A DNA stretch of 64,000 nt from Proteobacteria bacterium UBA2383 (lineage in GTDB: Bacteria; Pseudomonadota; Gammaproteobacteria; Competibacterales; Competibacteraceae): positions 53,082 to 117,081 of the forward strand of contig DDST01000138.1 of NCBI GenBank assembly GCA_002343485.1. The letters are read 5' to 3'. Positions 3 to 53,539 of this stretch are shown here, piece by piece. Made by a program: the position numbers and the translations under genes. A model generated the notes under the pieces. It worked only from the letters and a program-made list of their open reading frames with translations. It had not been told where the DNA came from and did no database searches. Each line of letters starts with the position of its first letter. Positions within the stretch are counted from its first letter, which is position 1.

Positions 3-2051
3 GTGCGAACGCTGATCGAGTTGGCTCGTAAGCTGGAAGGGCTCGCGCGCAATGTTGGCAAGCATGCGGGCGGCGTGGTGATTGCCCCAGTGAACCTGAC
101 TGATTATTCGCCGCTGTACTGTGAGCAGAACGATCCCAGCGTTGTCACCCAATTTGACAAGGACGATGTGGAGGCAGCAGGGCTGGTCAAGTTTGACTTC
201 CTGGGGCTGCGCACCCTGACAATTATTGATTGGACGTTGCAGACCATTAACGCGCAACGGCAAGCGCGTGGCGAACCGCCACTGGATATTTCCGCCATCC
301 CCCTGAACGATACGCAGACCTTTAGCCTGCTCAAGCGTTATGAAACCACGGCGGTGTTCCAGCTCGAATCCAGCGGCATGAAAGATCTGATCCGTCGCTT
401 GCAACCGGATTGTTTTGAAGACATTGTGGCGTTGGTGGCGCTGTTCCGGCCAGGTCCACTGCAATCGGGCATGGTGGATGATTTTATTGACCGCAAGCAT
501 GGCCGGGCGCGTATCGAGTATCCGCATCCGGCGCTGGAACCGATTCTTAAACCCACCTATGGCGTTATTCTCTACCAGGAACAGGTCATGCAGATTGCAC
601 AGGTGCTGGCCGGCTATAGCCTGGGTGGGGCGGATTTGCTGAGGAGGGCGATGGGAAAAAAGGATGCTGCAAAGATGGCCAAGGAACGGGATGGTTTTAT
701 CAATGGCGCGAAGGATCGGCAAGTTGACCCGGAAACCGCTTCATATATATTTGACTTAATAGATAAATTTGCTGGTTATGGTTTCAATAAATCACATTCT
801 GCCGCCTACGCTCTCGTCTCCTATCAAACGCTTTGGTTAAAGACGCACTATCCTGCCGCGTTCATAGCGGCAGTATTGTCCTCAGACATGGACAAGACTG
901 ACAAGGTGGTGGTGTTCATCGAAGAATGCCGGCGTATGGGTCTGAAACTGGCTCCACCAGATATCAATGTTTCCGAATATCGCTTTACGGCCGGCGAAGC
1001 GGGTGAAATTCGCTATGGTCTGGGCGCGATCAAGGGTGTCGGCGAAGGCGCTATCGAAGCGTTGGTCCAGGAGCGCCGCCAAGATGGGCCGTACTCGGAT
1101 TTATTCGACCTGTGCCAGCGGGTCGATCTGCGTAAGCTCAACCGCCGGGTGCTGGAGTCATTGATCCGTTCCGGAACCTTCGATGAACTGGGTGCTAACC
1201 GGGCGACGCTGGCGGCGCAACTGCCGGAGGCTTTGCAACTGGCCGAACAACACTCCCGCAATGATGCCGCCGGTCAGAATGATATGTTCGGACTGGCGGC
1301 TACCGAGAAAACCCCTACGCGCCCGCTGCATATTGCCAAGACCCCGGAATGGAGTCAGGAAGAACGGTTGCGCGGTGAGAAGGAAACCTTAGGTATTTAT
1401 CTGAGCGGCCATCCGCTGGAGCGAATCGCTGATGAGTTGACCGCCTTGGGCGTGGCCCGCTTAGGCAGCCTGGCCGGGGGCAACAGTGTTTTGCGCCGGA
1501 GCAATGACCGGTCGCTATTGATTGCCGGGCTGGTCGTCAGCGTCCGTACCCGCAACGCTAACCGGGGTGGGCGGATCGCTTTCGTAACCCTGGATGATGG
1601 GACAGGCCGGCTGGAAATCCGCATTTTCCCGGAAGTGTATGAGCAACACCGGTCCTTGATTATCGAGGATGCCATTCTGCTGACGCAAGGAATGCTGAGC
1701 TGGGATGAGTTTAATCAGAGCACCCGCCTGAACGTTGAACGGGTGCTGGACTGGGATACGGCGCGCGCTGAGTATGCTCGCCGTGTGCTGTTGCGATTGG
1801 ATGCGCAACAGTGCCAAGCGGGTGCGTTACGGCAACTAGCCAGCATTCTAGCCGAGTATCGCGCCGATGGCCGGTGCTCTGTCTGGATTGAATACACCGG
1901 CCCCCAGGCACGAGTAGAACTGGCTTTCGGTCAGAATTGGCGGGTCAAACCCAGCGAGGCATTGCTCAAACGGCTCCGGGAGTTAGCCGGTGCGGAGAAT
2001 GTCACATTGCTCTATGACCGCTCGTCGGTCATTGATCATACTGCATCGTGA
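3..2051 (+). CDS. dnaE: DNA polymerase III alpha subunit, C-terminal ~680 aa (5' end outside window)
   Basis: Open frame enters from the window edge. Typical DnaE stretches are present: GADLLRRAMGKK, FAGYGFNKSHSAAYALVSYQTLWLKTHYP, ETLGIYLSGHPL, and a C-terminal OB-fold region. Confidence 0.95.
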   Translation: MRTLIELARKLEGLARNVGKHAGGVVIAPVNLTDYSPLYCEQNDPSVVTQFDKDDVEAAGLVKFDFLGLRTLTIIDWTLQTINAQRQARGEPPLDISAIPLNDTQTFSLLKRYETTAVFQLESSGMKDLIRRLQPDCFEDIVALVALFRPGPLQSGMVDDFIDRKHGRARIEYPHPALEPILKPTYGVILYQEQVMQIAQVLAGYSLGGADLLRRAMGKKDAAKMAKERDGFINGAKDRQVDPETASYIFDLIDKFAGYGFNKSHSAAYALVSYQTLWLKTHYPAAFIAAVLSSDMDKTDKVVVFIEECRRMGLKLAPPDINVSEYRFTAGEAGEIRYGLGAIKGVGEGAIEALVQERRQDGPYSDLFDLCQRVDLRKLNRRVLESLIRSGTFDELGANRATLAAQLPEALQLAEQHSRNDAAGQNDMFGLAATEKTPTRPLHIAKTPEWSQEERLRGEKETLGIYLSGHPLERIADELTALGVARLGSLAGGNSVLRRSNDRSLLIAGLVVSVRTRNANRGGRIAFVTLDDGTGRLEIRIFPEVYEQHRSLIIEDAILLTQGMLSWDEFNQSTRLNVERVLDWDTARAEYARRVLLRLDAQQCQAGALRQLASILAEYRADGRCSVWIEYTGPQARVELAFGQNWRVKPSEALLKRLRELAGAENVTLLYDRSSVIDHTAS

Positions 2052-5170: not shown

Positions 5171-5247
5171 GCGCCCGTAGCTCAGTTGGATAGAGCGTCG
5201 GCCTCCGGAGCCGAAGGTCGTGAGTTCAAGTCTCGCCGGGCGTGCCA
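5171..5247 (+). tRNA. tRNA-Arg (anticodon CCG)
   Basis: 77-nt cloverleaf folded by hand. Acceptor GCGCCCG/CGGGCGT, D arm GCTC..GAGC, anticodon stem TCGGC/GCCGA with loop CTCCGGA (anticodon CCG). T arm GTGAG-TTCAAGT-CTCGC, discriminator G, encoded CCA. Confidence 0.9.
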
Positions 5248-8484: not shown

Positions 8485-8802
8485 ATGACTGTCAAAGCAA
8501 CGTCCTCAATTCAGGTAATTACCCGATTAACTCTCATCCTGGATGCTATGGCCGCGCATGATGAGCCTGTCAGTCTCAAAACGCTGTCTAAGGCTACAGG
8601 CCTGCATCCCTCAACCACCTTCCGGATTTTGGCTTCTCTGACTGAACATGGTTTCGTAGAACGCAGCACAACAAGCCGTTACCGTTTAGGCATTCGATTG
8701 TTGCAACTGGGTAACCGGGTGCATGGGCAGATGATCGATCAGCATTCGGGCATCCATTCATTCTCCGCCGCACTTGATGAATTGAATGAAGCGAACGGCT
8801 GA
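8485..8802 (+). pseudogene. truncated IclR-family regulator (HTH domain only)
   Basis: 105 aa containing the IclR winged-HTH (LSLKTLSKATGLHPSTTFRILASLTEHGFVE) and linker. It stops about 20 residues into where the effector domain begins. Only 19 nt separate it from the convergent kinase gene end. Confidence 0.7.
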
Positions 8803-8821: not shown

Positions 8822-11548
8822 TTACCCGGCGCCTGGCAATTCCACAATAAACGTAGCGCCCTGCCCAGGCTCGCTCTCTACCCAGATGCGTCCATTATGG
8901 TGTTCGACAATCTTTTGACTGATAGGTAACCCCAAGCCGGTACCTTTGGGTTTGCCAGCGAGTGCGTTGCTCACCTGATGAAATTTCTCAAAGATCAGCT
9001 TGTGTTGATCAGAGGTAATACCCGGACCATTGTCGAGGACCTCGATGCGCCAGCGATTCATTAAACTCGGTTGTAAACGAATAGTGACTTCACCACTCTG
9101 TTCCGGGCAGAATTTCACCGCGTTCGATAGCAGATTGATAATGACCTGGGTTAAGCGATCGTGGTCGCCATCGATGATTACGGGAACATCCCCCAGATCC
9201 TCATGCAGCGCCACCGCTTTGTCGCAAAACAATTGGCTGGTGGAATTGATGGCATCTTGAATCAATGTACGAAGATCGACTTCGTCGACATGCCAGTCGA
9301 TTCGGCCAGAATCAATCTTAGCCATATCCAGCACCTGATTGATCAATCGGGTGAGTCGCTCGCTTTCCTTGACAATAATACTCAGGAACTTGCTGCGTTG
9401 CTCAACTTCCATGTCAGGGTTAGCCAGGAGGATTTCTGAGAAAGCGCGGATTGAAGTCAGAGGAGTGCGTAGTTCATGGGTCACGGTGGAGATGAATTCG
9501 TCCTTAAGGCGGTCGAGTTCTCGCAAGCGGTTATTCGCTTCACGCAGTTCAGCAGAGGTGGCTTCCAGTTCATGGGACTTTTGTTCCAGCCGGCGGCTGT
9601 ATTCGAGGACCTGTGTGCTCTCATCAAGGATCGTCATGACCTCTTCAATGCTGAGCACTTCGCCCATGACAATCGACGAGATCATCACCCGTGCAGACGC
9701 GGCGCCAATCGCTCCAGCCAGCAATCGCTCGGTGTAATGAATCAGCCGGGAATCCGCTTGCAATGGATAACCACTATGGTCATGGGCATAACGGTCGAAG
9801 GCCTCAGTCGCGCGTTGAGGGCCAAGAAACCGGGCCAGCAGATCATACAGCTCGGCTGTTTCTACCACACCCCGCCATAGCAGCGAATCACCGTCGTGGC
9901 GTTCACGTTTGAAGATATCAACGAACTGGCTGCCCTGTACTTGTTCGAGGGGATCTGGCTGGCTCAGCATTGAACCGAACACCAACCCGCCAATGTTAAG
10001 CAGCATGCTCCAGAACACTGAATGCATGTAGGGATCGAGATTCTCAAGACCAAATAGGGCATAAGGTTTGAGCAGCTCTAGGCCAAATGGGCCAATGTTG
10101 ACGAAATCAGCGCCGATCCAACCGGAGCGGGCCATGGCCGGCAGAAGCAGGGTATAGGCCCAGACTAGAAATCCCGCGCTCAATCCAATCAGCGCTCCTC
10201 GCCGGTTAGCACGCTTCCAGTACAAGCCAATCAGGATGGGCGGTGCGAACTGGGCGGCGGCGGCGAAAGAAACCAGGCCGCTGGCGACCAGCGCATAGGA
10301 TTCGCCAACAAACCGGAAATACAAGTACCCCAGCAGGATCAAGATCACGATGCCGGCACGCCGGATGCCCAGAAGTAGACCGGACCAGTCAGATCGTCTT
10401 GCCAGCCATCGCGGGTTAGCGCGCAGCAAGATCGGCATGACCAGATCATTGCAAACCATGGTGGACAGCGTGACAGTTTCAAACATGATCATGCTGGCGG
10501 CCGCTGACAATCCGCCCAGAAACACCAGCAGTGCCAGCATTGGCATCTGCTCAGCCATCGGCAGCGCTAGTACGAAGGTGTCTGCATCCACGCTGCCATT
10601 GCTGAACACTAAGCGCCCGCCCAAGGCAATAGGTAACACAAACAGGTTAATGGCGAACAGATAGAGAGGAAATAACCAGATCGCCTTGCGGATATGTGTC
10701 TCGTTGACATTTTCCACTACCAGCACCTGGAATTGCCGAGGCAGAAACAGAAATGCCATCATTGACAGGAAGGTTAATGACAACCAGCCGCCATAACCGC
10801 CGGGTACCACTTCAAAGCGCAGCAACGGCGCTAGATCTGGGTGTGCCGCCGCCTGCTGGAACAGATCGCCAGGACCGTCGAACAGCAGGAAAGTTACTAC
10901 GACGCCCACCAGCATGAAGGCTAGCAGTTTAAAAAGGGATTCGAAGGCGACCGCTGCTACCATCCCTTCGTGGCGCTCAGTGTTGTCGATGTGGCGGGTG
11001 CCAAACAGAATAGTGAACACGCTCAGCACCAGGGCCACGTAGAACGTGGTATCCATCCAAACCGGATGTTGCGTGGACACCGCTAGCCGGCTCACCTCCG
11101 GATATTGGCGCAGCAGGCTGAAACTGGCGGCAATGGCTTTCAGTTGAATCGAGATATAGGGCAGGATGCCGAGCATCACAATCAGCGTCACCATCCCAGC
11201 CAGCAGACCGCTTTTCCCGTAGCGGGAACCGATGAAATCAGCGATGGAGGTGATGCGATGCGCTTTGGTAATGCGTACGATGCGCCGTAGCACGAACCAG
11301 AACAACACTGCCATTAGCGTTGGTCCCAGATAGACCGGCAGGAAATCCACCCCGCTGACCGCCGCCAATCCGACACTGCCGTAAAATGTCCAGGCAGTAC
11401 AATAGATTGCTAGCGAGAGTGTATAAATATAGGGATTGGCAATGATCGAGCGGCCAGTATCGGCACGTTGGTCGCCATAATAGGCGATACCGAATAGCAC
11501 GCCCATGTAAGCGAAGGCGCTGGCGAGGATGATACTGTCGCTCATCAT
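8822..11548 (-). CDS. sensor histidine kinase with N-terminal sodium:solute symporter (SLC5/SSS) domain and STAC-like linker (CbrA/CrbS architecture, no receiver)
   Basis: 908 aa. About 560 aa of multi-TM symporter-like sequence. A soluble segment (..LYDLLARFLGPQRATEAFDRY..) resembles STAC. Then a coiled coil, HisKA STVTHELRTPLTSI, and HATPase (NLLSNAVKF, DNGPGI, GTGLGLPISQKIV). Confidence 0.9.
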   Translation of the reverse strand: MMSDSIILASAFAYMGVLFGIAYYGDQRADTGRSIIANPYIYTLSLAIYCTAWTFYGSVGLAAVSGVDFLPVYLGPTLMAVLFWFVLRRIVRITKAHRITSIADFIGSRYGKSGLLAGMVTLIVMLGILPYISIQLKAIAASFSLLRQYPEVSRLAVSTQHPVWMDTTFYVALVLSVFTILFGTRHIDNTERHEGMVAAVAFESLFKLLAFMLVGVVVTFLLFDGPGDLFQQAAAHPDLAPLLRFEVVPGGYGGWLSLTFLSMMAFLFLPRQFQVLVVENVNETHIRKAIWLFPLYLFAINLFVLPIALGGRLVFSNGSVDADTFVLALPMAEQMPMLALLVFLGGLSAAASMIMFETVTLSTMVCNDLVMPILLRANPRWLARRSDWSGLLLGIRRAGIVILILLGYLYFRFVGESYALVASGLVSFAAAAQFAPPILIGLYWKRANRRGALIGLSAGFLVWAYTLLLPAMARSGWIGADFVNIGPFGLELLKPYALFGLENLDPYMHSVFWSMLLNIGGLVFGSMLSQPDPLEQVQGSQFVDIFKRERHDGDSLLWRGVVETAELYDLLARFLGPQRATEAFDRYAHDHSGYPLQADSRLIHYTERLLAGAIGAASARVMISSIVMGEVLSIEEVMTILDESTQVLEYSRRLEQKSHELEATSAELREANNRLRELDRLKDEFISTVTHELRTPLTSIRAFSEILLANPDMEVEQRSKFLSIIVKESERLTRLINQVLDMAKIDSGRIDWHVDEVDLRTLIQDAINSTSQLFCDKAVALHEDLGDVPVIIDGDHDRLTQVIINLLSNAVKFCPEQSGEVTIRLQPSLMNRWRIEVLDNGPGITSDQHKLIFEKFHQVSNALAGKPKGTGLGLPISQKIVEHHNGRIWVESEPGQGATFIVELPGAG

Positions 11549-11842
11549 TCAAGAAGACTCCGGCGGGTCCTGCGCATCAGAAGCGCCACCTGGTCGAGAG
11601 AAACCCTGAGTGCGGGTCGCGCCAGACTTGGTGGATTCGGTGGGTTCCCGGATTTCTGAGCGTTGTACTACCAGGATCAATAGCACAATCAGTACGAACC
11701 AAATCAGATAGAGATAAAAATACAGTAACGGAATACCGAATGGCGCCCATGACCGGTCGAACAAATCCAGCACTGGATAATTGATCGCCAGAGCACCGCA
11801 GATGAATAGAATCGTGATGTATTCCCGGGATTGCTGCCGCAT
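11549..11842 (-). CDS. small two-TM membrane protein (resembles the small partners found upstream of SSS transporters, DUF3311-like)
   Basis: 97 aa with two hydrophobic helices and a polar tail. Its stop codon directly abuts the kinase start codon (11549 / 11548). Confidence 0.55.
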   Translation of the reverse strand: MRQQSREYITILFICGALAINYPVLDLFDRSWAPFGIPLLYFYLYLIWFVLIVLLILVVQRSEIREPTESTKSGATRTQGFSRPGGASDAQDPPESS

Positions 11843-11874: not shown

Positions 11875-13971
11875 TTAGAAGTTTGCTTGGGTCTTGCGGA
11901 TCTCCACCATCTTATCAGAGGCCTCCAGCGCTTGGCCGAGAGTCTTGACGCCTTGTGCTTCCAATAAATCGAGCAGCTTGAGAAAAACCTGTGCGGTGAC
12001 TAGCGAGTCACCCAGGGCAGTATGGCGGTCATGCACGTCTACTCCCAGGCGATCGGCAATGGCATCCAGGTTATGGTCGTCGGTGTAGTCATGCAAGTAA
12101 CCGGATAACAACAAAGTATCCAGTACCGGATTGCCGAAATAAATGCCAGCTTTCCGCTCTTTCATCTTAAGGAACTTCATATCAAAGGCAGCGTTGTGGG
12201 CAACCAGTACCGTTTGGTCGTCACCAACGAATTTGCGGAATTGCGGCAATACCACATCGATACCCGCCTTATCCTTGATCATGTCATCGGTAATGCCGTG
12301 AAAACGAATCGAGGCTTTGGGAATCGGCCGGCCGGGGTTGACCAACTGATCGAAGCTCTCGCCGGCCAGCAGCCGGCGGTTGACAATGCGTACTCCGGCG
12401 ATCTGGATAATTTCATCCCCCTTGGAAGGTGCCAAACCAGTGGTTTCGGTATCGAATACCACGTAAGTGAGCGCACTCAGCGGGTAGTTGAGCAGCTCAC
12501 CCCATTCCTCGCGGTGTTGGGCTAGGGAGAAATCATAGAATTCAGGCCGTTCCGGCAAGTTTTCTGGCGGCTCTTTCCATTGGCGCGTCGAATTTGGCAG
12601 CGGCAAACGCAGCAAGGCATATCCAGGCCGGCGGTGGGACTGGCTCCAGATATCGCTGTTGTGCCGGCGCAGGATTTCGCCTACGGTCGTTGCGCCCACG
12701 AGATCCTGCACATGTTCACTGAGCCAGCCTTCTAAATGATCGGCAGACAGCGGCTCTCCCGGCCAGATGATGTCCAGGTAGACATGCCGGTTGCCCAATA
12801 AACATTCGATCTCAAAGGTTGAGCTGATCCCATGAGTGTGCAAGTGATTGAGAGTGTGTTCTAGCAACAGCATGATCGAGTGGTTGTCGACATTGAGCCA
12901 TAGGGGCATGCCTACCATCTTCACGTGGAGGTCCGTGCGCTTGCTCATATGGTGGATCACACTGCCAATTAAGTCTGCAGAATAGACATCGTTCATTGGC
13001 CAGCGGTTGGCGTATAGCGTACGCAGTTCGAGAGCCAGTTCCTGCAAACGTTGGCTGAGCTGTTCGCTTTCTTCAACGATCACTCGCTGGAAGGTTTCAC
13101 GCTGCGGCTGATCCATACCCGCGAAGTTCATGATCATTTCCGCTGCCGCTCGCAGATTGGCCAATGGCCGGCGCAAGTCCTCGGTGCGAGTCTTGAGCAG
13201 GAAGCGATCAACCTGTTGCGTGACATCACGGAAGGTGATGACGAAGGCCGATGTGCGGTCCATGGCGCTTGGCAACAGGCTCATCCGGCAGTGGAGCAGG
13301 GTCCCATCATCTACTGTTGCACAGACAAATTCGGCATCGCTGGCTGGTTTGCCTTCCCCATTGCTCTGTTGGCGGTAATGTAGCAGTTGCAGGGTGCTTT
13401 CGATGGGAGCGCGGGTCCACAGAGCATAGAGGGAGCGGCCTAAGCCTAGCATCTCGCGGTTGGGCAGCAGTTTCGCTGCCGCTGCGTTGTAGAGCAGGAT
13501 GCGCGCGTCGCCATCGCAAACCAGCACGCCTTCTGATAATTCGCGCAAGACAGTTTCCAAGCGGGCTTTCTGCTCTTCGATCTCTTGGGTGCCCGTCGCG
13601 GCGGCGGCAGCAGCTTCGCGACGAGCTTTATGCAGAGCCTCGCCCAGTTCCAGCAGCATGGTGGGGAATTCGCCCAGCCAATGTTGTTTGGGCAGTTCCA
13701 GCATGTAACCGGGATTGCTGCGAGTGATGATCCGTGCACCGCGCGCCAGGGCGCCTAAGGGAATGAAACAGTGCCAGTCGAGGAGCGACCAGACTACCGT
13801 GGTGCCGCTGATAATAGCGAACGCAGCCAGAACCACCCAAAGCAGCAGCAACTCACGCTCGTCAGTTTCCGGAATCGTCTGGAAAATCTGCCAACCGATC
13901 CAAAGTAGCGAGACCAGCGTCAGTACCGCTGGAATCAGCCACAACAGCCAGAGCCGGGTCCGGTAGCGCAT
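11875..13971 (-). CDS. membrane-anchored PAS protein with degenerate histidine-kinase core fused to a DEDDh (DnaQ-like) 3'-5' exonuclease domain
   Basis: 698 aa with two N-terminal TM helices, a HAMP-like linker and PAS ([25 protein letters not shown]). The DHp-like segment reads RTEDLRRPL where kinases have SHELRTPL. The CA-like region lacks clear G1/G2 boxes. C-terminal Exo [11 protein letters not shown], Exo [15 protein letters not shown], Exo [17 protein letters not shown]. Confidence 0.85.
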
Positions 13972-13977
13972 GATGGT

Positions 13978-14358
13978 TCAGTCCGTTTCAGCGAGCAACT
14001 CACGAACCCGCTCCACCACCTCCTGAGTCGAGAAAGGTTTTGTGATGTAGTCATCCGCACCCAATGCTAATCCCTTTTCTTTTTCGACCTCACGTCCTTT
14101 GGCAGTTAGCATGATAATGCGAACACCAGCCCAGTCTGGATTGGCGCGAATCGCCTGACAGACTTCATAGCCATTCTTGCGAGGCATCATCACATCAAGC
14201 AACACCAGATCTGGCGGGTCGGCAAAGATAGCAGCCAGTGCCGCTTCGCCATCTGAGGCAGTCCGCACTTGGAAGCCCGCTTGCTTCATCAAAAACTCCA
14301 AGGACAGAACGATATTCGGTTCATCGTCCACCACTAGAATTTTGTTAGCCATATCCAC
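13978..14358 (-). CDS. single-domain (CheY-like) response regulator
   Basis: 126 aa. ILVVDDEP, DLVLLDVMMP, IIMLTAK and ITKPF are all present. No output domain. Confidence 0.9.
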   Translation of the reverse strand: MDMANKILVVDDEPNIVLSLEFLMKQAGFQVRTASDGEAALAAIFADPPDLVLLDVMMPRKNGYEVCQAIRANPDWAGVRIIMLTAKGREVEKEKGLALGADDYITKPFSTQEVVERVRELLAETD

Positions 14359-14393: not shown

Positions 14394-14732
14394 TTATGCG
14401 GGTTTATCAGTACTGCTGTGTACCGTGTCTTTCTCACGCGGTTCCTGCGAGGAGTCGGTTTTGCGGTCTGCCACATCTTTGGCTGCAGTTGCCATATTCC
14501 CGCCGCTGGCCTTGGCGACCGCCTCCCAGAATTTCTGCACCATTTCCATCGAATGAAATTGAGTGGGTAACAACGGCTTGAATAAGCTCAGTGCGTCGAA
14601 GTTGATCGCACCGCGCTGCACGTTGTCACGGATCGTCTGCAAAATATCGTCGTGCAGAGGCTGAATGTTTGGCAGACCCAGAAACTCGCGCATTTCGTGG
14701 GCAGTGGCTTCAACGCTGACATTGACTTTCAT
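14394..14732 (-). CDS. hypothetical protein, first gene of the operon
   Basis: 112 aa with AAGGA 9 nt upstream of the ATG. Helical N-terminal ~75 aa and a polar tail. No motif I can name. Confidence 0.55.
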   Translation of the reverse strand: MKVNVSVEATAHEMREFLGLPNIQPLHDDILQTIRDNVQRGAINFDALSLFKPLLPTQFHSMEMVQKFWEAVAKASGGNMATAAKDVADRKTDSSQEPREKDTVHSSTDKPA

Positions 14733-29032: not shown

Positions 29033-31189
29033 TTAGTTTTTCGTAGTTTGTTGGTGGTGATGCAGCAACGCAGTAATTTGATCAACGGGCAAGGGCCGGC
29101 TCAAATAGTACCCTTGGATTTCATCACAATGTTTAGCCTTCAGAAAGCGCAATTGTGCCTCATTTTCCACGCCTTCCGCGATGACGCGCAGCCCCATGCT
29201 TCCGGCCATGGCGATCACCGCAGTGGTGATCGCGGCGTCATCGGGGCGGGTGTTGACCTCTTGCACAAATGCCTTATCAATCTTAAGGCGATCCAGCGGT
29301 AATTGTTTGAGCCGGCTTAGGCTGGAATAGCCGGTACCAAAATCATCAATGGCCAGTTGGACGCCCAGCATCTTGAGACTTTGCAGAGTACGGGTGGCGC
29401 CATCGGGGTCTTTCATCAGCAAGCTTTCAGTGATCTCAAGCTCCAGAGTATCCGCATCGAGACCGGTCTCTTCCAGGATCTGCGCGACCAGTTCCGGAAA
29501 ACCCGGCTGCATGAATTGCAGGACGGAGATATTGACCCCCATGCGTGACAAGCCACAGCCGGTATCCCGCCAGATACGGGCCTGCTGGCAGGCAGTGCGC
29601 AACACCCATTCACCGATCGGGATAATAAGCCCGGTTTCTTCAGCTAACGGAATGAAATCGGCGGGTGATATGGAACCCAGTAAGTGGCTTTGCCAGCGCA
29701 CCAGCGCCTCGACACCGCAAATCCGGCCGCTGAGCAAATCGAGTTGCGGCTGGTAGTGCAGGGACAGTTCGTGCCGTTCGATGGCCTTACGTAACTGGTT
29801 TTCCATCGCCAGGCGTTGGAGGGCGGTTTCGTTCAAAGAGATGTCGAAAAAATGATAAAGATTTCGTCCCTGTTGCTTGGCGGCATACATGGCCATGTCA
29901 GCGTTTTTGAGCAATGTTTCTGGATCGTTGCCATCATGGGGGAACACGGCAATGCCGATGCTGGGTGTAATGAAAACTTCATGAGTTTCGAGCACCACGG
30001 GCCGTGAAAGATCCATTTGGATGCGCTCGGCAACGATAGCGGCATCCTCGCAACGGCGAATTTCGGGGAGAAGCACCGTAAACTCGTCGCCCCCGAGCCG
30101 GGCGATATCGTACTCCATCTGCACGGTGTCATGTTCCAAGCTTGCAATGCTTTCGCGACCTACCGAATCGCTGGCGCGTAGGCTCTCTCTCAGGCGTTCT
30201 GCCGTTGCCTGAAGCAAGAGATCGCCAATGCGATGGCTGAGGGTGTCATTGATGCGCTTAAAGTGATCCAAATCGAGAAAGAGCAGGGCGAGTAAGCGCT
30301 CGTGCCGTTTCGCTAGCTTGATCGCTTCACCGAGGCGGTCCTTGAACAGCGCGCGATTGGGTAATTGGGTGAGACTGTCCGTGAAGGCCAGTTCACGGAT
30401 GCGTGCCTCTGCCTGACAAAGCTTAGTGATGTCCTGCAAAGTGCCATATAAGTGGAGAGGGCAATGATCGTTGCCAAACAGCGTCTCAACCTGCTGGCGA
30501 ACATGGCGCAAGACACCCCGGGCATCCAGAATCCGATAGTTGATTGCTTGAGAACTCCCGTGTTCACAAACGCGGGTAAACCACTGCCAGGCGTGAGATC
30601 GATCTTCCTCGTGAACGAAATTGAGAAGCACGGGCAAGGGGATATCAGGCGTTGCAGTGTCAAAACCCAGAACGGCGCACACTTCTGCTGAGAGATGGAG
30701 ATGTTCCTGTCCCCGGCTCCACCGCCAGTATCCTAGTCGCGCGATGCGTTGGGCATTGGCCAGTTGGCGCTCGCTCTCATGCAGACGAGACATCGCAGCA
30801 CTGGCCCGCAGCAGGTAACGCACCCGGTGTTTGAGCAAGGGGTAGCTGATCGGCTTAGTGATGAAGTCGGTGGCGCCGGCATTGAACGCCTGATCGATCG
30901 ACTCATGGTCATTTAGACCCGTCATCATCAGAATCGGCAGCAGTGCGCTATCTGGCCGCTGGCGTAGTTCAGCGCATGTGGCAAAGCCGTCCAATCCGGG
31001 CATCATCACATCCATGATGACCAGATCGGGAGCAGTGGCCTCGAAGACCGCTAGCGCCTGCCGGCCACTCTGTGCTTGTTCGACATGAAATCCAGCTTTT
31101 TCAAGTGCCATACTTACCAGAGAGCGAACCAAATCGTCGTCGTCGACCACCAGAATCTTGGTGAGCAAGGAAGAGGAAGCAGCATTCAT
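29033..31189 (-). CDS. response regulator with PAS-GGDEF-EAL output
   Basis: 718 aa. REC (ILVVDDDD, DLVIMDVMMP, ITKP), PAS, GGDEF intact (RLGGDEFTVLL), EAL intact (EALVRW, DDFGTGYSS). Confidence 0.9.
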   Translation of the reverse strand: MNAASSSLLTKILVVDDDDLVRSLVSMALEKAGFHVEQAQSGRQALAVFEATAPDLVIMDVMMPGLDGFATCAELRQRPDSALLPILMMTGLNDHESIDQAFNAGATDFITKPISYPLLKHRVRYLLRASAAMSRLHESERQLANAQRIARLGYWRWSRGQEHLHLSAEVCAVLGFDTATPDIPLPVLLNFVHEEDRSHAWQWFTRVCEHGSSQAINYRILDARGVLRHVRQQVETLFGNDHCPLHLYGTLQDITKLCQAEARIRELAFTDSLTQLPNRALFKDRLGEAIKLAKRHERLLALLFLDLDHFKRINDTLSHRIGDLLLQATAERLRESLRASDSVGRESIASLEHDTVQMEYDIARLGGDEFTVLLPEIRRCEDAAIVAERIQMDLSRPVVLETHEVFITPSIGIAVFPHDGNDPETLLKNADMAMYAAKQQGRNLYHFFDISLNETALQRLAMENQLRKAIERHELSLHYQPQLDLLSGRICGVEALVRWQSHLLGSISPADFIPLAEETGLIIPIGEWVLRTACQQARIWRDTGCGLSRMGVNISVLQFMQPGFPELVAQILEETGLDADTLELEITESLLMKDPDGATRTLQSLKMLGVQLAIDDFGTGYSSLSRLKQLPLDRLKIDKAFVQEVNTRPDDAAITTAVIAMAGSMGLRVIAEGVENEAQLRFLKAKHCDEIQGYYLSRPLPVDQITALLHHHQQTTKN

Positions 31190-31231
31190 GTGGGAGAGAG
31201 GACCTTGGCTACCTAGAGGCGTAATAGAATG

Positions 31232-34200
31232 TCATATTTGTTCAAAAGAAAGCTTGGGGGCTTCGGGCAAAGTATCTAATCGCGCGCGGAGTTGGGCAAA
31301 AGCCAGTTCTAAATCGGCAAAGGCGGTTATTGCATCTTCCAGGCGATTTTCCCGGCCCATAGTCTCCAGCTTATGGCATTTTGACGAAAAAATGGCCGCG
31401 CCCAAAGTGGTGCTTGCTGACTTTAGGGCGTGTGCTTTTGCCCGGATTTCTAGGGCATCTGCCGCTGCTATCGCTGTTCGCAGTGCCTCGATTTGATAAG
31501 GTGCGTTTTCCAGGTAAAGCTGGATCATCCGGGTCAGTGGATTGGGCAATCCTTCCCGGCCCAATGCGCGAATTTGCGCCAGTTGGGATTCGTCCAGAAT
31601 TACAGCTGCTTGGTCATGGCTAATCAATGATGCTGATGGGGAATCTAGCGCCGGTGGGAAATGGTCTACTGGGGTGTGCTGGGGTAACCAGCGCGCTAAC
31701 ACAGTATCTAGTTGCGCCATAGTAAGCGGCTTTCTGAGATAATCATCCATCCCGGCGGCTAAACACAGTTCACGGTCGCCGGCCAGCGCATTAGCAGTCA
31801 GGGCAATGACCGGGAGTCGAGGGCCGCCGGATGCCTGCTCCAGCGCCCGGAGTTGCCGGGTCGCTTCAAAGCCGTCGAGCACCGGCATTTGGCAATCCAT
31901 CAGGGCTAGAGCGTAGCGCCGCTGGGCGATCATCGCGAGCGCCTGCGCGCCATCCTCTGCTAATTCAACGTGCAGGCCTAGCTCTTGGAGCATCTCGCAG
32001 CCTAACTCCTGGTTTACCGGGTGATCTTCGACGAGCAGTACCCGCTGATCATGTCGCGCGGCGTGAGCGGCGGCGGACCGGCCTTTTTGATGTTGCTTGG
32101 GCGAGATGACGCCTGCAGCGTCACCTTGCACGATCGCCAGCAGGCAGTTATACAACTGGGATTCCCGGATGGGCTTGGTCAGATAGGCATGAATTTCCAG
32201 CGTCTGCATCCCAGTTTCTTCAGCCTTATTCCAGATTGAATGAAGTAAAATGACAGGCAGCGGCGCTATCACTGGATCGGCCCGCACCGCCCGGATCAAA
32301 TCGATACCATCCATGCCAGGCATCTCCCGGTCGAACAGGCCCAAGGTGAAAGGGTTGCTTGCCGCGTTCTCGCGGAGTTGCAACAAGGCAGTGCTGGCGC
32401 TATCGGCACTCGCGTGTGGAATGCCCCAAGCGGTCAATTGTTCTTCTAGGATGGTCCGGCTTGTCGCATTGTCATCCACGACCAAGACCCGCATGGTGCT
32501 CAATGTATCAGGAAACCGCAGCGAGCGATCGGCGCTCGCCAGTACTTTAGCCAGTCGCGCAGTGAACCAGAACCGGGAACCATGTCCAGGCTCGCTATCT
32601 ACTCCGATTTCGCCGCCCATCAGCCCAGCAAGACGCTTGCAGATCGCCAAACCTAGTCCGGTACCGCCATATTCGCGGGTGGTTGAGCTATCGGCTTGCG
32701 AAAAGGATTCAAACAACCGGGTCTGTGCTTCGGGGGAAATGCCGATACCGGTATCGCGCACTTCAAATTGCAGCAGGACTTCCGTATCCCTGTCTTCAAG
32801 CGCTTTCACCCACAACGCGACCTCGCCCGCTTGGGTAAACTTGCAGGCATTGCTCAGCAGATTGGTGACTATCTGTCGCAATCGTCCGGCATCGCCCCGC
32901 AGCTTTGGGTATACGCCAGGTGTGATTCCACAAGTCAGTTCCAGACCTTTACGCTGGGCGCGCTCAGCAAACAACTCAGTCACCTCATCGATCAGTTCAC
33001 GAAGATCAAAAGGCGAGTTGTCGAGCTCTAGTTTATCGGCCTCGATTTTTGAGAAATCCAGAATGTCGTTAATGATGGCTAGCAGCGACTCTGCAGAGCG
33101 GCGGATATTGCCGGTAAACCGGTGCTGACGCGCCGACAGTTCGGTATTGGCCAACAATTCGGCCATACCCATCACCCCGTTCATCGGCGTACGGATTTCA
33201 TGGCTCATCACAGCCAGAAATTGTGACTTGGCCTGGTTGGCTTCTTCTGCTGCTTCTTTGGCAGCTTGCATCTGGTGTTGTAATTCGACGCGTTCACTGA
33301 TGTCTTGGGCCACACAGACGATACTGTTTTTCATAACGCCATCATCAATCAATGAGGCAGATAGCGACACTAAAATGTGACGGTTATCCTTGCGCCGGTA
33401 AGCGCAATCGATGCCAGCAACCCGGCCAAAGCGGCGAATCTGGTTGAGCCAGCTGGCATACGATGAGTTAGGCTCCAGCGTAACCAGATGTGAAAACTCG
33501 ATCCCTAATAGCTCACCCTCATTATAACCAAGCCACCGTGCCATAGCCGGATTGACATCAGTGATGCATCCGGCCGGGTCGAGTACGGCAAGTGCGTCAT
33601 TCATACTGCCAAGGATATTTTCGACGGCATTCTTTGAGATAGTGGTCCTGCGCAATTCCGCGGCCATCCGGTTGAATGCGTTGACTAGTAAGCCAATTTC
33701 ATCGCGTGAATCGAAAAGTAATGTAATGGGTTCGCTGAGATCGCCCGTCTGCTGGATCCGATCCATCGTTTGGCGGATTTGCGTTAAGGGATTAACCACG
33801 CTGAGGATTACTTGATGACTAAAGCCGATGGTGAAGCAGAAGGCAATGCTTATTAGCAGACAGGCCGTCCAGGTGAGTTCACGGCTATTGTTCTGGATAG
33901 CAGCGATGGTGCTATGGAGAAAATCGGTTTGTTGCTTCACTAAGCCGTGGAGGAGAGGGGTTAGTTGGGCAATCACCGGCGCAGCGCGGGTTGCCATCCA
34001 GTGATTGGCGATGTTCCAGTCAGGGCGGCCTCGCAGCTCCAGCAGTTTGCCGGCAAGTAAAGAGAATTGTTGACGGGCGTTAAGGTACGTTTCAAAAATT
34101 TGCTGCTGTTCTTCGCTCATCAGAAAATCCAGTAGCAAGAGTTCTTGAGACCGGGTCTGATTACGCATCCACTCCTCACTCCAAGCTTGGTGATAGCGGT

Positions 34201-34834
34201 TCTCGCCGGTCAGCAAGTAGTCGCGCAGATTGGCCGCAGCGTTGTTAGCGCTGCCTTGAGCGTGAGCGAGGATAAATGGGAGTTCTCCATGTGATGCATT
34301 GGTTTCCCGATGCCGCTCCAGATCGATCAGATGGGTCAAACTGTTCGAGAGGATTGAGGAGAGCGGTGCCGCTTGCTCGGTTAGCAACTGCACAGCGGGA
34401 ATATTGTCTGGCGTCCAGGCAATGTCTTCGATCGCCTGCTGATGAGCCAGGGCATCGGTCAGAAGCTGTTCGATGCGGGCTAAATCCGCTGCTGGCGGAT
34501 TCAGTGGATTTGACGGGGTTGCTGTCTGGGTCTTGAGTTGAGCGAGGGCTGGCAGGATCTCTTGCTCAATGGCCGTGCGCCGTTCTGTGCGGAATTGAGG
34601 ATCGCCAAGCAGCATCCAACCGCGCAGTGCGGCTTGGGAATGTTCGAGTCCGCCCAATATGCGCAGACTCGCCAAGGCCATCGGTGTGACGTGGCGAGTG
34701 ACCTCTTCCGTCGCCCCAAGATTCTGCTTGACCATGATCAGGGTAAAGGTACCGGTCACGGTGATGGTGAGAAACATCAAAGCCAAGCCGATATTTAGCT
34801 TTGCTCGTAGGGACCAGCTTTTGAGAGGACGCAT
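31232..34834 (-). CDS. hybrid sensor histidine kinase (periplasmic/4-helix sensor, HAMP, PAS, HisKA-HATPase, two receivers, HPt)
   Basis: 1200 aa. [13 protein letters not shown]-box, [27 protein letters not shown]. Two REC domains (VLVVDDN.., [17 protein letters not shown]). C-terminal HPt ([13 protein letters not shown]). Confidence 0.9.
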
Positions 34835-51690: not shown

Positions 51691-53487
51691 ATGAGCGCGC
51701 TTTCCTTGCTGCATCATCGGGTTGGCCAGACGCTGATCGCCGGCATCGCTTTATTAAGTCTGCTGGTGATAATCAGCACGACTGCCATTCAGTTTTATTT
51801 CGACTACCGGACTGCTCGCGCTGGACTTATGGCTCCCTTTGACCCGGTTCGCCATCTTGCTGATACCCGCCTGAGTCAGGCTGTCTGGGCCGAAAACAAC
51901 ACTCAAATTCAGGCGTTTCTGGATGTCCTGGTCACGATGCCCGATCTCTACTATGCAGCGATTATAAAACAAGGCCAAGTTCAAGCGCAGGCCGGTCAGC
52001 CTTCAGTCACATATCCTGTTGAATGGGAAATTCCATTGCAATTTACTCTTGAAGGCCAGCCGCTTGAAATCGCGCGTCTGCGCCTGATAAGCGACGAAGA
52101 TGCCATTTGCGCCCAACTGATCCGCCGATCCCTGCAGCGGCTGGCCACCACCACTGTGGAAATACTGGCTCTGGCTCTGCTCATTGTGCTGTTCCTGTTC
52201 CACGGCCTGACCCGCCGCCTGCAGGCCGTTGCTCACTGTGCCGGCGCACTGGATTCTGCACACGGTCCAGGCAGCGTGTGCCTGAACCGCTTGACATCCG
52301 CATGTGGCGAGGACGAACTCGATATTGCGGTCACCAATGCTAGCCGGGTCCATTGTAAACTGGCGGGTCTTTATGCGGATGAACACGCTCGCTCCAAGAC
52401 AGCGCTTCTGCATCTTGATTACGCGCTGGCTAACATGACGGAAGGACTGGCCCTAATGGATGCCGAGGGTTTGGTGCTACTGGCCAATCCCCGGCTGAAT
52501 GAACTCTACGGCGCTGATCACACGCCGGTATGGGCCGAAGGACAGCCGCTGGCTGCGATCAATGCTGCTCTGACCGAGCAGGCCATGGTCACCGAGGAAA
52601 TCGTGATTGAAGCAGTCGCGGACATGCGCTTGCTGGAACGCCGGTTGCGGGACGGACGATGGGTACTGGTCCGTGATCGCACCCTACCCGGCGGACGCCA
52701 GTTGCAGCTGCATACTGAGATCACCCAGCTTAAGCAGCGTGAATTGGATTTGCAGCACAGCAACGCAGATCTTGAGCAATTCGCCTATGTCGCCTCCCAC
52801 GATCTGCAAGAACCTTTGCGCATGATTACCGGGTATCTGCAATTATTGGAGCGCCGCTACCGGAACAAATTAGATGATTCGGCCCACGAGTTTATCGCCA
52901 TCGCGGTGGACGGGGCCAAGCGCATGCAGCAACTGATTCTCGATTTGTTAGCGTTCTCGCGGATCAGTACGCGCAGCCAAACCTATGCGTCGACCGATAT
53001 GGCACAGGTATTATCCAGCGTTCTTGCCAATCTTGAAGCCGCCATCCGCGATCATGCGGCCCTCATCCATCATGATCCACTGCCTACCATCGTCGCTGAT
53101 TCAGGGCAAATGCACCTATTACTGCAAAACCTGCTGGCCAATGCCCTCCGTTTCCACAAACCGGATGAGCCGCCACACATCACGATTAGCGCCCAGCATC
53201 TCAAAAAAACCTACCATGCTCCCTTGGACGGACAGGTTTCCGGCTGGATCTTCGCGGTATGTGATAATGGCATTGGTATTGAGCCGTGTTTTTTTGAACG
53301 CATTTTCATTATCTTTCAGCGGCTGCATACTCGGGAGGAGTATCCGGGCACCGGAATTGGGCTGGCGGTTTGTAAAAAGATCGTTGAGCGTCATGGCGGG
53401 CGCATTTGGGTCGAATCTAAGCTGGATCAAGGAACATGCTTTCGCTTTTTCCTGCCCGATCATTCACTCACTATAGGTTCTGCTTGA
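51691..53487 (+). CDS. membrane sensor histidine kinase (TM-periplasmic-TM, PAS, HisKA-HATPase; H-box of the SHDLQEPLR type)
   Basis: 598 aa. FAYVASHDLQEPLRMI H-box, NLLANALRF, DNGIGI, GTGIGLAVCKKIVERHGG. Confidence 0.9.
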   Translation: MSALSLLHHRVGQTLIAGIALLSLLVIISTTAIQFYFDYRTARAGLMAPFDPVRHLADTRLSQAVWAENNTQIQAFLDVLVTMPDLYYAAIIKQGQVQAQAGQPSVTYPVEWEIPLQFTLEGQPLEIARLRLISDEDAICAQLIRRSLQRLATTTVEILALALLIVLFLFHGLTRRLQAVAHCAGALDSAHGPGSVCLNRLTSACGEDELDIAVTNASRVHCKLAGLYADEHARSKTALLHLDYALANMTEGLALMDAEGLVLLANPRLNELYGADHTPVWAEGQPLAAINAALTEQAMVTEEIVIEAVADMRLLERRLRDGRWVLVRDRTLPGGRQLQLHTEITQLKQRELDLQHSNADLEQFAYVASHDLQEPLRMITGYLQLLERRYRNKLDDSAHEFIAIAVDGAKRMQQLILDLLAFSRISTRSQTYASTDMAQVLSSVLANLEAAIRDHAALIHHDPLPTIVADSGQMHLLLQNLLANALRFHKPDEPPHITISAQHLKKTYHAPLDGQVSGWIFAVCDNGIGIEPCFFERIFIIFQRLHTREEYPGTGIGLAVCKKIVERHGGRIWVESKLDQGTCFRFFLPDHSLTIGSA

Positions 53488-53539
53488 TCCTGTATCCCTA
53501 CGTTAATCTTTGAATAGCATACCGGAATTGTGAACTGTC

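Follow-up and report, generated by a model that had tools for sequence, protein, structure and literature searches.

One of the closest described systems to the protein presented here is DivL of Caulobacter crescentus (PDB 4q20), in which a non-phosphorylating core of the HisKA-type DHp-CA architecture is preceded by PAS and works with the single-domain receiver DivK, itself phosphorylated by a separate true kinase. In DivL the core now serves to sense whether the receiver is phosphorylated (PMC4211667). DivL carries Tyr at the position of the phospho-accepting His, and its output, within the cell cycle, is the kinase CckA, which is reached via the PAS domains. NifL (PDB 9qq6) and PsmA of Streptomyces similarly use PAS together with a kinase-like core for protein-protein regulation and not for phosphotransfer. 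NifL has kept ADP binding and acts on the activator NifA, while PsmA is a hybrid kinase-like polarisome component that is without the His as well as the D/E-x-x-T/N phosphatase motif (PMC12963549).

A further comparison is found in Pseudomonas. There the SSF-kinase system MxtR/ErdR (CrbS/R) has its strongest target in the DUF294/exonuclease operon PP_0354-PP_0353, and mutants in the analogous nuclease are only mildly affected (PMC9927547; bioRxiv 10.64898/2026.09.07.749794). This arrangement places a DEDDh (RNase_T family) exonuclease and a cNMP-CBS-DUF294 protein under an SSF-type kinase, beside actP/acs; the nuclease is a free protein and its control is transcriptional, via the DNA-binding regulator CrbR/ErdR. 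PA3233-PA3232 is a further DUF294/exonuclease operon of the CrbS/R (MxtR/ErdR) acetate regulon. In general, the output of a two-component system is almost always a transcription factor, a cyclic-di-GMP enzyme or the flagellar motor.

We have analysed a gene for a 698-aa protein on the minus strand of the window, i.e. the whole stretch of 64,000 nucleotides under study. From its N-terminus the product consists of two membrane helices, a HAMP-like coiled coil, a PAS domain, a DHp-like hairpin, a CA-like domain, an RPEFYDF linker and a DEDDh exonuclease. A literature search for a pseudokinase-exonuclease fusion found no description of one, and on the DUF294/exonuclease pair it gave the Pseudomonas MxtR/ErdR papers as the sole useful source; the family is uncharacterised. 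The features of the gene and its neighbours are given below.

8822-11548, minus strand: sodium:solute-symporter-like sensor histidine kinase (SSF-kinase), 908 aa; Pfam SSF, HisKA (2.4e-19) and HATPase_c (1.6e-31)
11549-11842, minus strand: small membrane protein, 97 aa, coding region abutting the start of the SSF-kinase gene
11875-13971, minus strand: whole gene for the membrane-anchored PAS / pseudo-histidine-kinase / DEDDh exonuclease protein, 698 aa, from open reading frame and domain searches
13978-14358, minus strand: single-domain response regulator, 126 aa; Pfam Response_reg (2.4e-30)
13783-13953, minus strand: two hydrophobic helices forming a membrane hairpin, aa 7-63, read from the sequence
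13567-13782, minus strand: HAMP-like helix-connector-helix and coiled coil leading into the PAS domain, aa 64-135, from the AlphaFold model
13210-13566, minus strand: PAS domain, aa 136-254; Pfam PAS_4 (1.4e-7, above cut-off)
13006-13209, minus strand: DHp-like helical hairpin, aa 255-322, aligned to HELRTPL of WalK and of the neighbouring kinase
13180-13182, minus strand: codon GAG, Glu264, at the phospho-accepting His position
12577-13005, minus strand: CA-like alpha/beta domain without N, G1 and G2 boxes, aa 323-465, from structure models, Foldseek and box-by-box alignment
12748-12774, minus strand: remnant of the G1 box, DIIWPGEPL, aa 400-408, aligned to D-x-G-x-G
12529-12549, minus strand: linker motif R-P-E-F-Y-D-F at the pseudokinase-nuclease junction, aa 475-481
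11878-12480, minus strand: DEDDh (DnaQ/PolC-type) 3'-5' exonuclease domain with C-terminal helix, aa 498-698; Pfam RNase_T (3e-36)

Read from the sequence, the loop between the two membrane helices is about 10 residues long and there is no outside sensor domain. In the AlphaFold model the N-terminal helices span residues 2-32 and 36-84, and the HAMP-like region is made up of helices 36-84 and 102-144 with a connector at 85-101. Pfam gave no HAMP match in aa 64-135, hence 'HAMP-like' is used as an inferred term. Two PAS residues, C152 and N162, are invariant or nearly so among 92 diverse relatives.

The relationship of the middle region to kinases is barely visible to Pfam, as the HisKA match is marginal (E 0.01, below cut-off) and no HATPase_c match was found in the 698-aa protein. 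A family profile of aa 250-482 searched against the PDB, on the other hand, matched WalK (5c93) with E 1.6e-9 along with VicK, HK853, ZraS and DivL, the last with E 4e-4. The region can also be aligned over its full length with the functional kinase whose gene is the second one downstream, and BLASTP against the core of this SSF-kinase gave E 2e-11 across DHp and CA. Structure prediction of the DHp/CA-like region led to the same result. A model of the core alone (pLDDT 82.5) has the hairpin of a DHp four-helix bundle followed by the alpha/beta fold of a CA domain, and all 50 of its top Foldseek matches were DHp-CA kinase cores with E about 1e-11, DivL being matched with E 3e-9. The top matches of the full AlphaFold model were likewise all DHp-CA kinase cores (E 2e-19), and NifL was among the fold matches. 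The kinase resemblance is thus true homology and not chance.

The residues needed for catalysis are a different matter. The H-box of the DHp-like hairpin (peptide aa 260-270, 13162-13194) is without His and reads T-E-D-L-R-R-P-L, with Glu264 aligned to the His of WalK and to His691 of the neighbouring SSF-kinase. A preliminary description of this DNA had placed Glu (codon at 13180-13182) at the His position, and GAG indeed encodes it there. The same description pointed to the question of its conservation, and here the answer is divided: His is absent from the column in all 80 genomes, while Glu itself is found in 56 of them, the remaining residues being D (7), T (5), Q (4), R (3), K (3), G (1) and F (1). 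Among 150 cluster representatives a single one has His at the 264 column, and even there G1 is replaced by WxG, so that none of these orthologues retains both the His and the G-boxes. The phosphatase motif that follows the His (E/D-x-x-T/N) is missing as well, as the +4 position is R, A, G or S. R267 is kept in 139 of 151 representatives, and R267, L270, A271, N272, L273 and R274 form an exposed H-box-like motif that is conserved across phyla.

The CA-like domain shows a similar pattern. The preliminary description found no convincing G1 or G2 box, citing DIIWPGEPL (aa 400-408) and a peptide at aa 424-434 (12670-12702), and our alignment agrees. The DxGxG of G1 has become WxGxP (W-P-G-E-P), with Trp403 on the position of the adenine-binding Asp; at the G2 position GATTVG is followed by a deletion of five residues and the G2 glycines are lost; and the Asn of the N-box is replaced by His372, in a column that varies across the family. 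Of 151 representatives, 136 have Trp403 and 135 have G405; Trp403 also occurs in 77 of 80 genomes. W403 and G405, together with H437, have newly become invariant where the ATP pocket used to be, which indicates selection on the altered domain. Judged from these alignments, the loss of the kinase residues is ancient, family-wide and under selection. The CA-like domain is predicted to be unable to bind ATP in the usual way, and assays of autophosphorylation and ATP binding are predicted to be negative. With the fold kept, the catalytic residues gone and the loss conserved among orthologues, the region has the properties of a histidine pseudokinase.

The exonuclease shows the reverse. The preliminary description considered all its motifs intact, and the catalytic residues D507 and E509 (D-x-E; Exo I stretch aa 504-513), D597 (in HNAAFD, aa 592-597) and H650 and D655 (H-x4-D; in HTALGDS, aa 650-656) are all present. 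These five DEDDh residues are invariant in the 92 diverse relatives and are found in 79-80 of the 80 genomes. For aa 498-680 the closest PDB sequence is the PolC exonuclease 2p1j (E 8e-30). Foldseek superimposed the domain on PolC 9qpc with an rmsd of 1.5 A over 189 columns at 34% identity, and on epsilon with a TM score (target) of 0.84, as expected of an RNase H-like fold. From the complete DEDDh site and the model we predict an active nuclease. It shares the DEDDh catalytic set with the PolC/DnaQ proofreading domains (2p1j, 9qpc, 1j53), but unlike these it has no polymerase partner domain, is tethered to the membrane and stands in a signalling context. Profile, fold and motif evidence thus uphold the original reading of a pseudo-histidine-kinase with an intact DEDDh exonuclease fused to it, and taken as a description alone we consider it very probably correct.

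The junction between the two parts is itself conserved. The RPEFYDF linker adjoins a stretch of low model confidence (469-478), and its residues R475, D480 and F481 are found in 79, 80 and 79 of the 80 genomes, respectively. It is not present in the stand-alone pseudokinases or in the stand-alone nuclease described below.

The gene belongs to a compact string. The stop codon of the response regulator lies 6 nt ahead of the start of the pseudokinase-nuclease gene, and the Pfam search found no output domain in this regulator. The SSF-kinase is encoded in the same string with intact HisKA (His691) and HATPase_c. The 97-aa membrane protein matched nothing in domain-family searches; weakly conserved homologues of it precede the SSF-kinase in many loci. 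Housekeeping genes, among them mnmG and thyA, are also neighbours in the window. A search with Rfam and a tRNA scan for an RNA substrate gene near the cluster found only a tRNA-Arg (5171-5247).

The family consists of about 200 clusters at 50% identity (E below 1e-30) in at least eight phylum- or class-level lineages, with loci in Gamma-, Beta- and Alphaproteobacteria, Nitrospirota, Desulfobacterales, Acidobacteriota, Chloroflexi and Actinobacteria. Gene order is conserved, and the database names are generic only. Carriers in culture include Tepidicella xavieri DSM 19605, Ramlibacter aurantiacus AW1, Xanthobacter sp. AM11/AM33, Frigidibacter albus SP32, Plastorhodobacter daqingensis and Marinibacterium profundimaris. 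Immediately upstream there is a receiver gene in 68 of 76 evaluable loci from genomes and in 64 of 64 from metagenomes. The SSF-kinase is present in 57 of 80 genome loci and 46 of 80 metagenome loci, many of these loci being cut by contig ends. In seven loci (L014, L043, L063, L067, L075, L079 and L080) the receiver adjacency holds without an SSF-kinase in the fetched flank. Eight family members from genomes are without an upstream receiver, one of them (L009) having a receiver just downstream instead. Two loci, L160 and L081, encode pseudokinases of 346-358 aa without the nuclease, placed between the receiver and the SSF-kinase.

The partners known from the Pseudomonas operons, namely DUF294, an SSF-kinase and actP/acs, surround the pseudokinase-exonuclease family too. 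A cNMP-CBS-DUF294 nucleotidyltransferase is encoded in 60 of 80 genome loci, and ActP-like and Acs genes are found in 24 and 22 of 80 loci by strict tblastn criteria (44 and 20 loci by looser clustering). Natural fusions of the type exo-CBS-DUF294 (L013) and PAS-pseudokinase-exo-CBS-DUF294 (P0150) also occur. In L160 a separate DUF294-exonuclease operon adjoins the pseudokinase locus, and its stand-alone exonuclease is 31% identical to the exonuclease domain studied here (E 2e-25). Within the 64-kb window tblastn found neither DUF294 nor ActP nor Acs, hence what is said below on writing and erasing is extrapolated from relatives. In contrast to Pseudomonas, the nuclease is here fused to the pseudokinase and the receiver has no DNA-binding domain, therefore control would be post-translational; PP_0353 is likened to our nuclease by description only.

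We suggest that the product acts as effector in a conserved signalling module, to which four genes of the window belong, and for the whole chain up to receiver docking we find this somewhat more probable than its opposite. The SSF-kinase would sense a small carboxylate such as acetate and phosphorylate the single-domain receiver, which would dock on the DHp hairpin of the pseudokinase in the manner of DivK~P on DivL. A conformational change induced by docking, together with input from the PAS domain, would pass through the linker and turn the nuclease on or off at the membrane. Docking has been shown for DivL, and for the present protein we infer it. Compared with DivL, our protein usually has Glu in place of Tyr, its ATP boxes have turned into WxGxP, its output is a covalently fused exonuclease and its context is carbon metabolism instead of the cell cycle. 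NifL and PsmA differ from it in having neither an enzyme output domain nor a link to an SSF-kinase. Further, we speculate that the nuclease may be the counterpart of the DUF294 nucleotidyltransferase, removing what DUF294 adds, be it the 3' tail of an RNA, a protein-bound nucleotidyl group or a short signalling oligonucleotide. Such a pair would tune the assimilation of acetate and short-chain acids after transcription. The writer/eraser part we consider less probable than not. We are equally doubtful about the complete three-step output, in which the SSF-kinase acts on the receiver and the receiver on the dead core to switch the exonuclease, forming with the cNMP/CBS-regulated DUF294 enzyme a reversible switch that adds and removes nucleotides on a protein, an RNA 3' end or a small oligonucleotide. 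Such a switch would control acetate and short-chain-acid assimilation post-transcriptionally in many phyla, glycogen- and polyphosphate-accumulating wastewater organisms among them.

The preliminary description had seen the kinase scaffold as a docking or regulatory module, and as far as gene context goes this agrees with our data, as the receiver lies upstream in some 90-100% of evaluable loci and the stand-alone pseudokinases keep both the receiver and the SSF-kinase as neighbours; docking as such is a prediction from synteny and analogy. Instead of the receiver, the pseudokinase could act on the SSF-kinase by DHp pairing or PAS/HAMP contact, tuning its kinase/phosphatase balance as DivL tunes CckA, in which case only PAS, if anything, would regulate the nuclease. 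Both are membrane proteins that are encoded together, their DHp hairpins are recognisably similar, helix 2 included (17-residue stretch versus QRSKFLSIIVKESERLT), and the stand-alone pseudokinases sit directly between receiver and SSF-kinase. Stable kinase heterodimers are, however, rare, the receiver is more tightly adjacent to the pseudokinase than the SSF-kinase is and remains so where the flank holds no SSF-kinase, and a single-domain receiver needs a protein target, of which the cluster encodes no other; we consider this interaction unlikely. About as improbable, in our view, is that the DHp/CA-like region is a leftover scaffold for structural dimerisation, that the real input is a ligand or redox signal at the PAS domain and that the receiver belongs to the SSF-kinase, as a phosphate sink or with another target. 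In the PAS domain, residues such as C152 and N162 equal the best-conserved positions of the whole protein. No strict function attaches to the residue at the His position, since E, D, T, Q, R and K all occur, and because the DHp motifs are unchanged in the eight receiver-less members, the hairpin may have a different role, e.g. dimerisation. Pure scaffolds, though, seldom keep an exposed H-box-like motif or new invariant pocket residues across phyla, and about 90-100% of loci have the receiver upstream, whichever the gene order. The comparison of DHp motifs, which are alike in members with and without a receiver, speaks neither for nor against docking. Docking of the receiver on the pseudokinase, which would thereby gate the nuclease, seems the most likely arrangement from synteny and from the analogy to DivL.

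Names in the source databases include 'histidine kinase' and 'DNA polymerase-3 subunit epsilon', and the nuclease domain exceeds the cut-off of the general dnaQ model TIGR00573 (111 versus 71.5 bits). The protein would then be an ordinary sensor kinase, or the proofreading subunit of Pol III, with an appended domain. The epsilon-specific models are nevertheless far from their cut-offs (TIGR01406 113.2 versus 222.7 bits; PRK05711 115.6 versus 196 bits), the protein is membrane-anchored and lies among signalling and acetate genes and not replication genes, and none of the His, N, G1 and G2 boxes is left in this protein or in relatives, with no HATPase_c match. By curated cut-offs and motif loss we reject both labels as far as sequence can tell, and they have hardly any probability left. 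A nuclease of anti-phage defence or of a CRISPR-associated system is just as far-fetched. The PADLOC models DEDDh (CRISPR-associated) and PDC-S48 do match the nuclease domain, but the matches span the generic DEDDh domain only, on which ground the defence reading was rejected; the cluster contains no other defence component, its neighbours are mnmG and thyA and, in relatives, acs, actP and DUF294, and it is syntenic across phyla and not patchy as defence islands are.

Should the proposed chain hold, two-component systems would gain a new type of output in the form of a nuclease controlled via a pseudokinase adaptor, and after DivL the protein would provide a second clear example of a kinase core that is read 'backwards'. 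It also gives a handle on a question from Pseudomonas and Vibrio, namely the role of the DUF294/exonuclease pair that is the strongest target of the acetate-sensing CrbS/R system. The host lineage, Competibacteraceae, and many relatives (Accumulibacter, Dechloromonas, Propionivibrio, Zoogloea) depend on taking up acetate rapidly in wastewater treatment, and a post-translational, acetate-responsive switch would, if real, be of physiological relevance there.

Among 56 triplets used for covariation, helix 1 of the receiver (EPNIVLSLEFLMK) and the H-box of the true kinase were almost invariant; as receiver helix 1 and the true-kinase DHp vary so little, covariation could not discriminate between partners. 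No natural fusion of a receiver and a pseudokinase was seen among the family matches. The membrane anchor, the PAS domain, the large multi-phylum family and the link to DUF294 and acetate genes are features that go beyond the preliminary description. A 99% identical copy of the 698-aa protein is encoded in the metagenome-assembled genome JACKNF010000003.1 (L001).

The fusion gene was called as a single ORF with the same coordinates as in the preliminary description, which had read it as a pseudo-histidine-kinase joined to an intact DEDDh exonuclease. All peptides quoted there were located at their given places in the 698 aa product, and the position of the phospho-accepting His is Glu264, encoded by GAG (13180-13182). 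The fusion gene lies second in a string of four closely spaced genes on the minus strand:

13978-14358, minus strand: single-domain receiver, 126 aa, with its stop 6 nt ahead of the fusion gene start
11875-13971, minus strand: fusion gene, 698 aa
13210-13566, minus strand: PAS domain of the fusion, aa 136-254 (Pfam/NCBIfam)
within the fusion gene, minus strand: HisKA match, aa 264-312, E 0.01, sub-threshold (Pfam/NCBIfam)
within the fusion gene, minus strand: RNase_T/DnaQ-type exonuclease, aa 504-663, E 3e-36, a strong match (Pfam/NCBIfam)
11549-11842, minus strand: membrane protein, 97 aa, third in the string
8822-11548, minus strand: sodium:solute-symporter-like sensor histidine kinase (SSF-kinase), 908 aa, HisKA and HATPase_c intact, fourth in the string

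Neither Pfam nor NCBIfam gave a HATPase_c match in the fusion protein. Its N-terminus has two hydrophobic helices with a loop of about 10 residues between them, hence it is membrane-anchored without an outside sensor domain. The AlphaFold model (79 relatives as input, mean pLDDT 79.8) runs from a membrane helical hairpin through a helix-connector-helix and the PAS domain to a DHp-like two-helix hairpin (aa 257-322) and an alpha/beta domain (aa 327-465), followed by a low-confidence linker and the exonuclease. In the PAS core Asn162 is family-invariant and Cys152 nearly so; the motif carrying them, EGV-x-VCD...RILLYN, differs from the LOV motif.

The middle of the protein is a kinase core, as found by three independent comparisons. 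A profile of aa 250-482, built from 25 diverse relatives, matched, from sequence with no structural input, the solved kinase cores WalK (5c93, E 1.6e-9), VicK, HK853 and ZraS, and also DivL (E 4e-4). By BLASTP the core of the working SSF-kinase two genes downstream aligned over the whole DHp and CA length (E 2e-11). Foldseek with the full model returned WalK, VicK, YF1, ThkA and HK853 as top matches (E down to 2e-19), and with a separate core-only model (pLDDT 82.5) all 50 best matches were DHp-CA kinase cores.

The residue-level alignments were mutually consistent, and substantiate the G1 and G2 boxes as missing. T-E264-D-L-R-R-P-L falls on the H-box S-H-E-L-R-T-P-L, the G1 box D-x-G-x-G is aligned with W403-P-G-E-P, and the G2 box with G-A-T-T-V-G followed by a 5-residue deletion. 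A non-conserved residue occupies the N-box Asn position, and the protein likewise lacks the E/D-x-x-T/N phosphatase motif that follows the His in HisKA kinases. The CA domain keeps its structural parts, such as H437-N-S-D-I-W-S-Q-S against H-N-G-R-I-W-V-E-S of the neighbouring kinase. As shown by sequence and modelled structure together, one membrane-anchored chain combines a dead kinase core with a complete nuclease active site, and the description as a pseudokinase plus active-looking nuclease is very probably correct.

Of the 2040 matches at E < 1e-3 in a search of aa 101-491 against 1.84 billion cluster representatives, 201 had E < 1e-30, and proteins of about 700 aa with the same architecture make up most of the best 150. 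Among these 150 the His column holds E 87, D 13, R 12, A 8, T 6, Q 5 and H 1, and in 80 species genomes E 56, D 7, T 5, Q 4, R 3, K 3, G 1 and F 1. The loss of His thus extends to the orthologues, with His in none of the 80 genomes and in one of the 150 representatives; in that one, and in two others with His beside the column, G1 is still replaced by WxG. Nearly invariant were R267 (139/151 representatives, 77/80 genomes), W403 (136/151, 77/80), G405 (135/151, 72/80) and H437 (128/151, 76/80). The exonuclease motifs proved as intact as first described, the five DEDDh residues being invariant in 92 aligned relatives and kept in 79-80 of the 80 genomes. As the His is lost family-wide while these other residues are nearly invariant or invariant, the fusions are, judged from the alignments, an old family under purifying selection and no decaying gene.

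In the linker R-P-E-F-Y-D-F (aa 475-481; 12529-12549, minus strand) conservation equals that of the DEDDh residues, with R in 79, D in 80 and F in 79 of the 80 genomes. It adjoins the only low-confidence stretch of the model. Neither the stand-alone pseudokinases nor the stand-alone exonuclease has this motif, which may serve for coupling.

The acidic pocket of the receiver is of the usual kind, with Asp55, Thr85 and Lys107 as read from its sequence, and the protein lacks an output domain. Genes flanking the four-gene cluster have housekeeping functions (mnmG, thyA and one of the PEP-mutase/isocitrate-lyase family), and no genes for a cNMP-CBS-DUF294 nucleotidyltransferase (DUF294), ActP or Acs occur in the 64-kb window. 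Surroundings were counted by strict tblastn criteria in 80 species-genome and 80 metagenome loci, many of which end at contig ends.

Neighbours of the fusion in genome loci and in metagenome loci
Receiver directly upstream (evaluable loci): 68/76; 64/64
SSF-kinase: 57/80; 46/80
DUF294: 60/80; 24/80
ActP-like transporter: 24/80; 1/80
Acetyl-CoA synthetase: 22/80; not found in the 80 loci

Looser clustering of the 80 genome loci placed ActP in 44 and Acs in 20. The order is receiver, fusion, small protein, SSF-kinase in Competibacter, Alphaproteobacteria and Nitrospirota, and SSF-kinase, receiver, fusion, DUF294 in Betaproteobacteria; the receiver-fusion pair is intact under both, and the metagenome loci have the arrangement of the genome loci. 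Carriers belong to Gamma-, Beta- and Alphaproteobacteria, Nitrospirota, Desulfobacterales, Acidobacteriota, Chloroflexi and Actinobacteria, with Tepidicella xavieri, Ramlibacter aurantiacus, Xanthobacter, Frigidibacter albus and Marinibacterium profundimaris among the cultured ones. Competibacter-type genomes have a second paralogue, 34-41% identical and without an upstream receiver (L058:6926-9094 of Ca. Competibacter phosphatis, and loci L051 and L010). It adjoins an ActP-like transporter, in L010 also DUF294, and its H-box-like motif is that of the receiver-linked members.

The two halves also occur apart. A stand-alone subfamily of 331-367 aa has PAS and pseudokinase only, without membrane anchor, linker or nuclease, and Glu or Asp in the His column of 8 of 10 aligned members (the remaining two have Arg and Gly). 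Two metagenome contigs (L160:3909-10288 and L081:174-3066) carry soluble pseudokinases of 346-358 aa. In L160 this gene has the receiver on one side and the small protein/SSF-kinase pair on the other, and an adjacent, convergent operon carries DUF294 and then a 234-aa exonuclease, 31% identical to our nuclease domain over its full length (E 2e-25); L081 is similar, with receiver, soluble pseudokinase, small membrane protein and SSF-kinase. Elsewhere an exonuclease-CBS-DUF294-DUF294_C fusion stands beside a family member (L013:4775-6922), and one relative of 1154 aa (P0150) is a PAS-pseudokinase-exonuclease-CBS-DUF294 chain; in the latter Ile replaces the Exo III His, and the match to the nuclease profile covers just two thirds of it. 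By these variants, the functional partners of the pseudokinase are the receiver and SSF-kinase, and that of the nuclease is DUF294; the fusion joins the two.

From the conserved context and the precedent of DivL, where a receiver docks on a kinase-like core (PMC4211667; described in PMC12963549), we suggest that the SSF-kinase would phosphorylate the stand-alone receiver, which would dock on the His-less DHp hairpin, and that this signal, with whatever the PAS domain senses, would reach the nuclease through the RPEFYDF linker. We give this receiver docking an even chance or slightly better. It is improbable that the pseudokinase instead modulates the true kinase; the receiver-fusion pair is also intact in loci without an SSF-kinase in the flank. 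Equally improbable is a DHp/CA region serving as dimerisation scaffold only, with the PAS domain as the real input. Covariation did not discriminate among these three models, because receiver helix 1 and the kinase H-box hardly vary, and neither did members without a receiver, whose hairpin is the same as in receiver-linked ones. Motifs and curated cut-offs led us to reject the readings as Pol III epsilon or as a normal kinase; that as a defence nuclease was rejected because the PADLOC matches concern a generic domain only.

In Pseudomonas, MxtR/ErdR (CrbS/R) controls the DUF294/exonuclease operon PP_0354-PP_0353 transcriptionally, and mutants of this operon are mildly affected on pyruvate and propionate (PMC9927547; bioRxiv 10.64898/2026.09.07.749794). 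The SSF-kinase system there is related to that of the present family, which looks like an MxtR/ErdR-type pathway wired post-translationally. Further, we speculate, with considerable doubt, that the nuclease might undo the nucleotidyltransferase product, be it a protein-NMP adduct, an RNA 3' tail or a short oligonucleotide; the idea comes from the fusions, DEDDh chemistry and analogy to GlnD-type writers and erasers. DEDDh enzymes release 5'-NMP from a phosphodiester, and GlnD-type systems are writer/eraser pairs.

Histidine pseudokinases (DivL, NifL, PsmA) and DEDDh exonucleases are both established types. The searchable literature yielded no account of a fusion of the two, of its conservation across the family or of its position as likely output of an SSF-kinase/receiver pair; database names for the family are generic only, and no curated NCBIfam model claims it.

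Some other features of the window should be noted. A 105-aa ORF (8485-8802, plus strand) has only an IclR-type helix-turn-helix (Pfam 2.8e-15), without effector-binding domain; the product is a small HTH protein or else a regulator that has been truncated. The ORF is convergent with the SSF-kinase gene, whose stop lies at a distance of 19 nt, and is retained in the MAG locus with a 99% identical copy (L001) and in the 81%-related L002 (72% over 83 aa). Upstream of the receiver, a 112-aa ORF (14394-14732, minus strand) with a weak DUF6489 match below cut-off (E 0.001) was found only in these two Competibacteraceae loci and therefore lies outside the conserved module. With the cluster's receiver and kinase as queries, tblastn detected more receiver- and kinase-like segments at 29033-34834 (minus strand) and 51691-53995 (plus strand), comprising large ORFs that resemble hybrid kinases (718 and 1200 aa) and a further kinase/receiver pair, apparently without relation to the cluster. 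The sole Rfam or ARAGORN match in the window is tRNA-Arg(CCG) (5171-5247, plus strand), and the window starts inside dnaE (Pol III alpha; 3-2051, plus strand).
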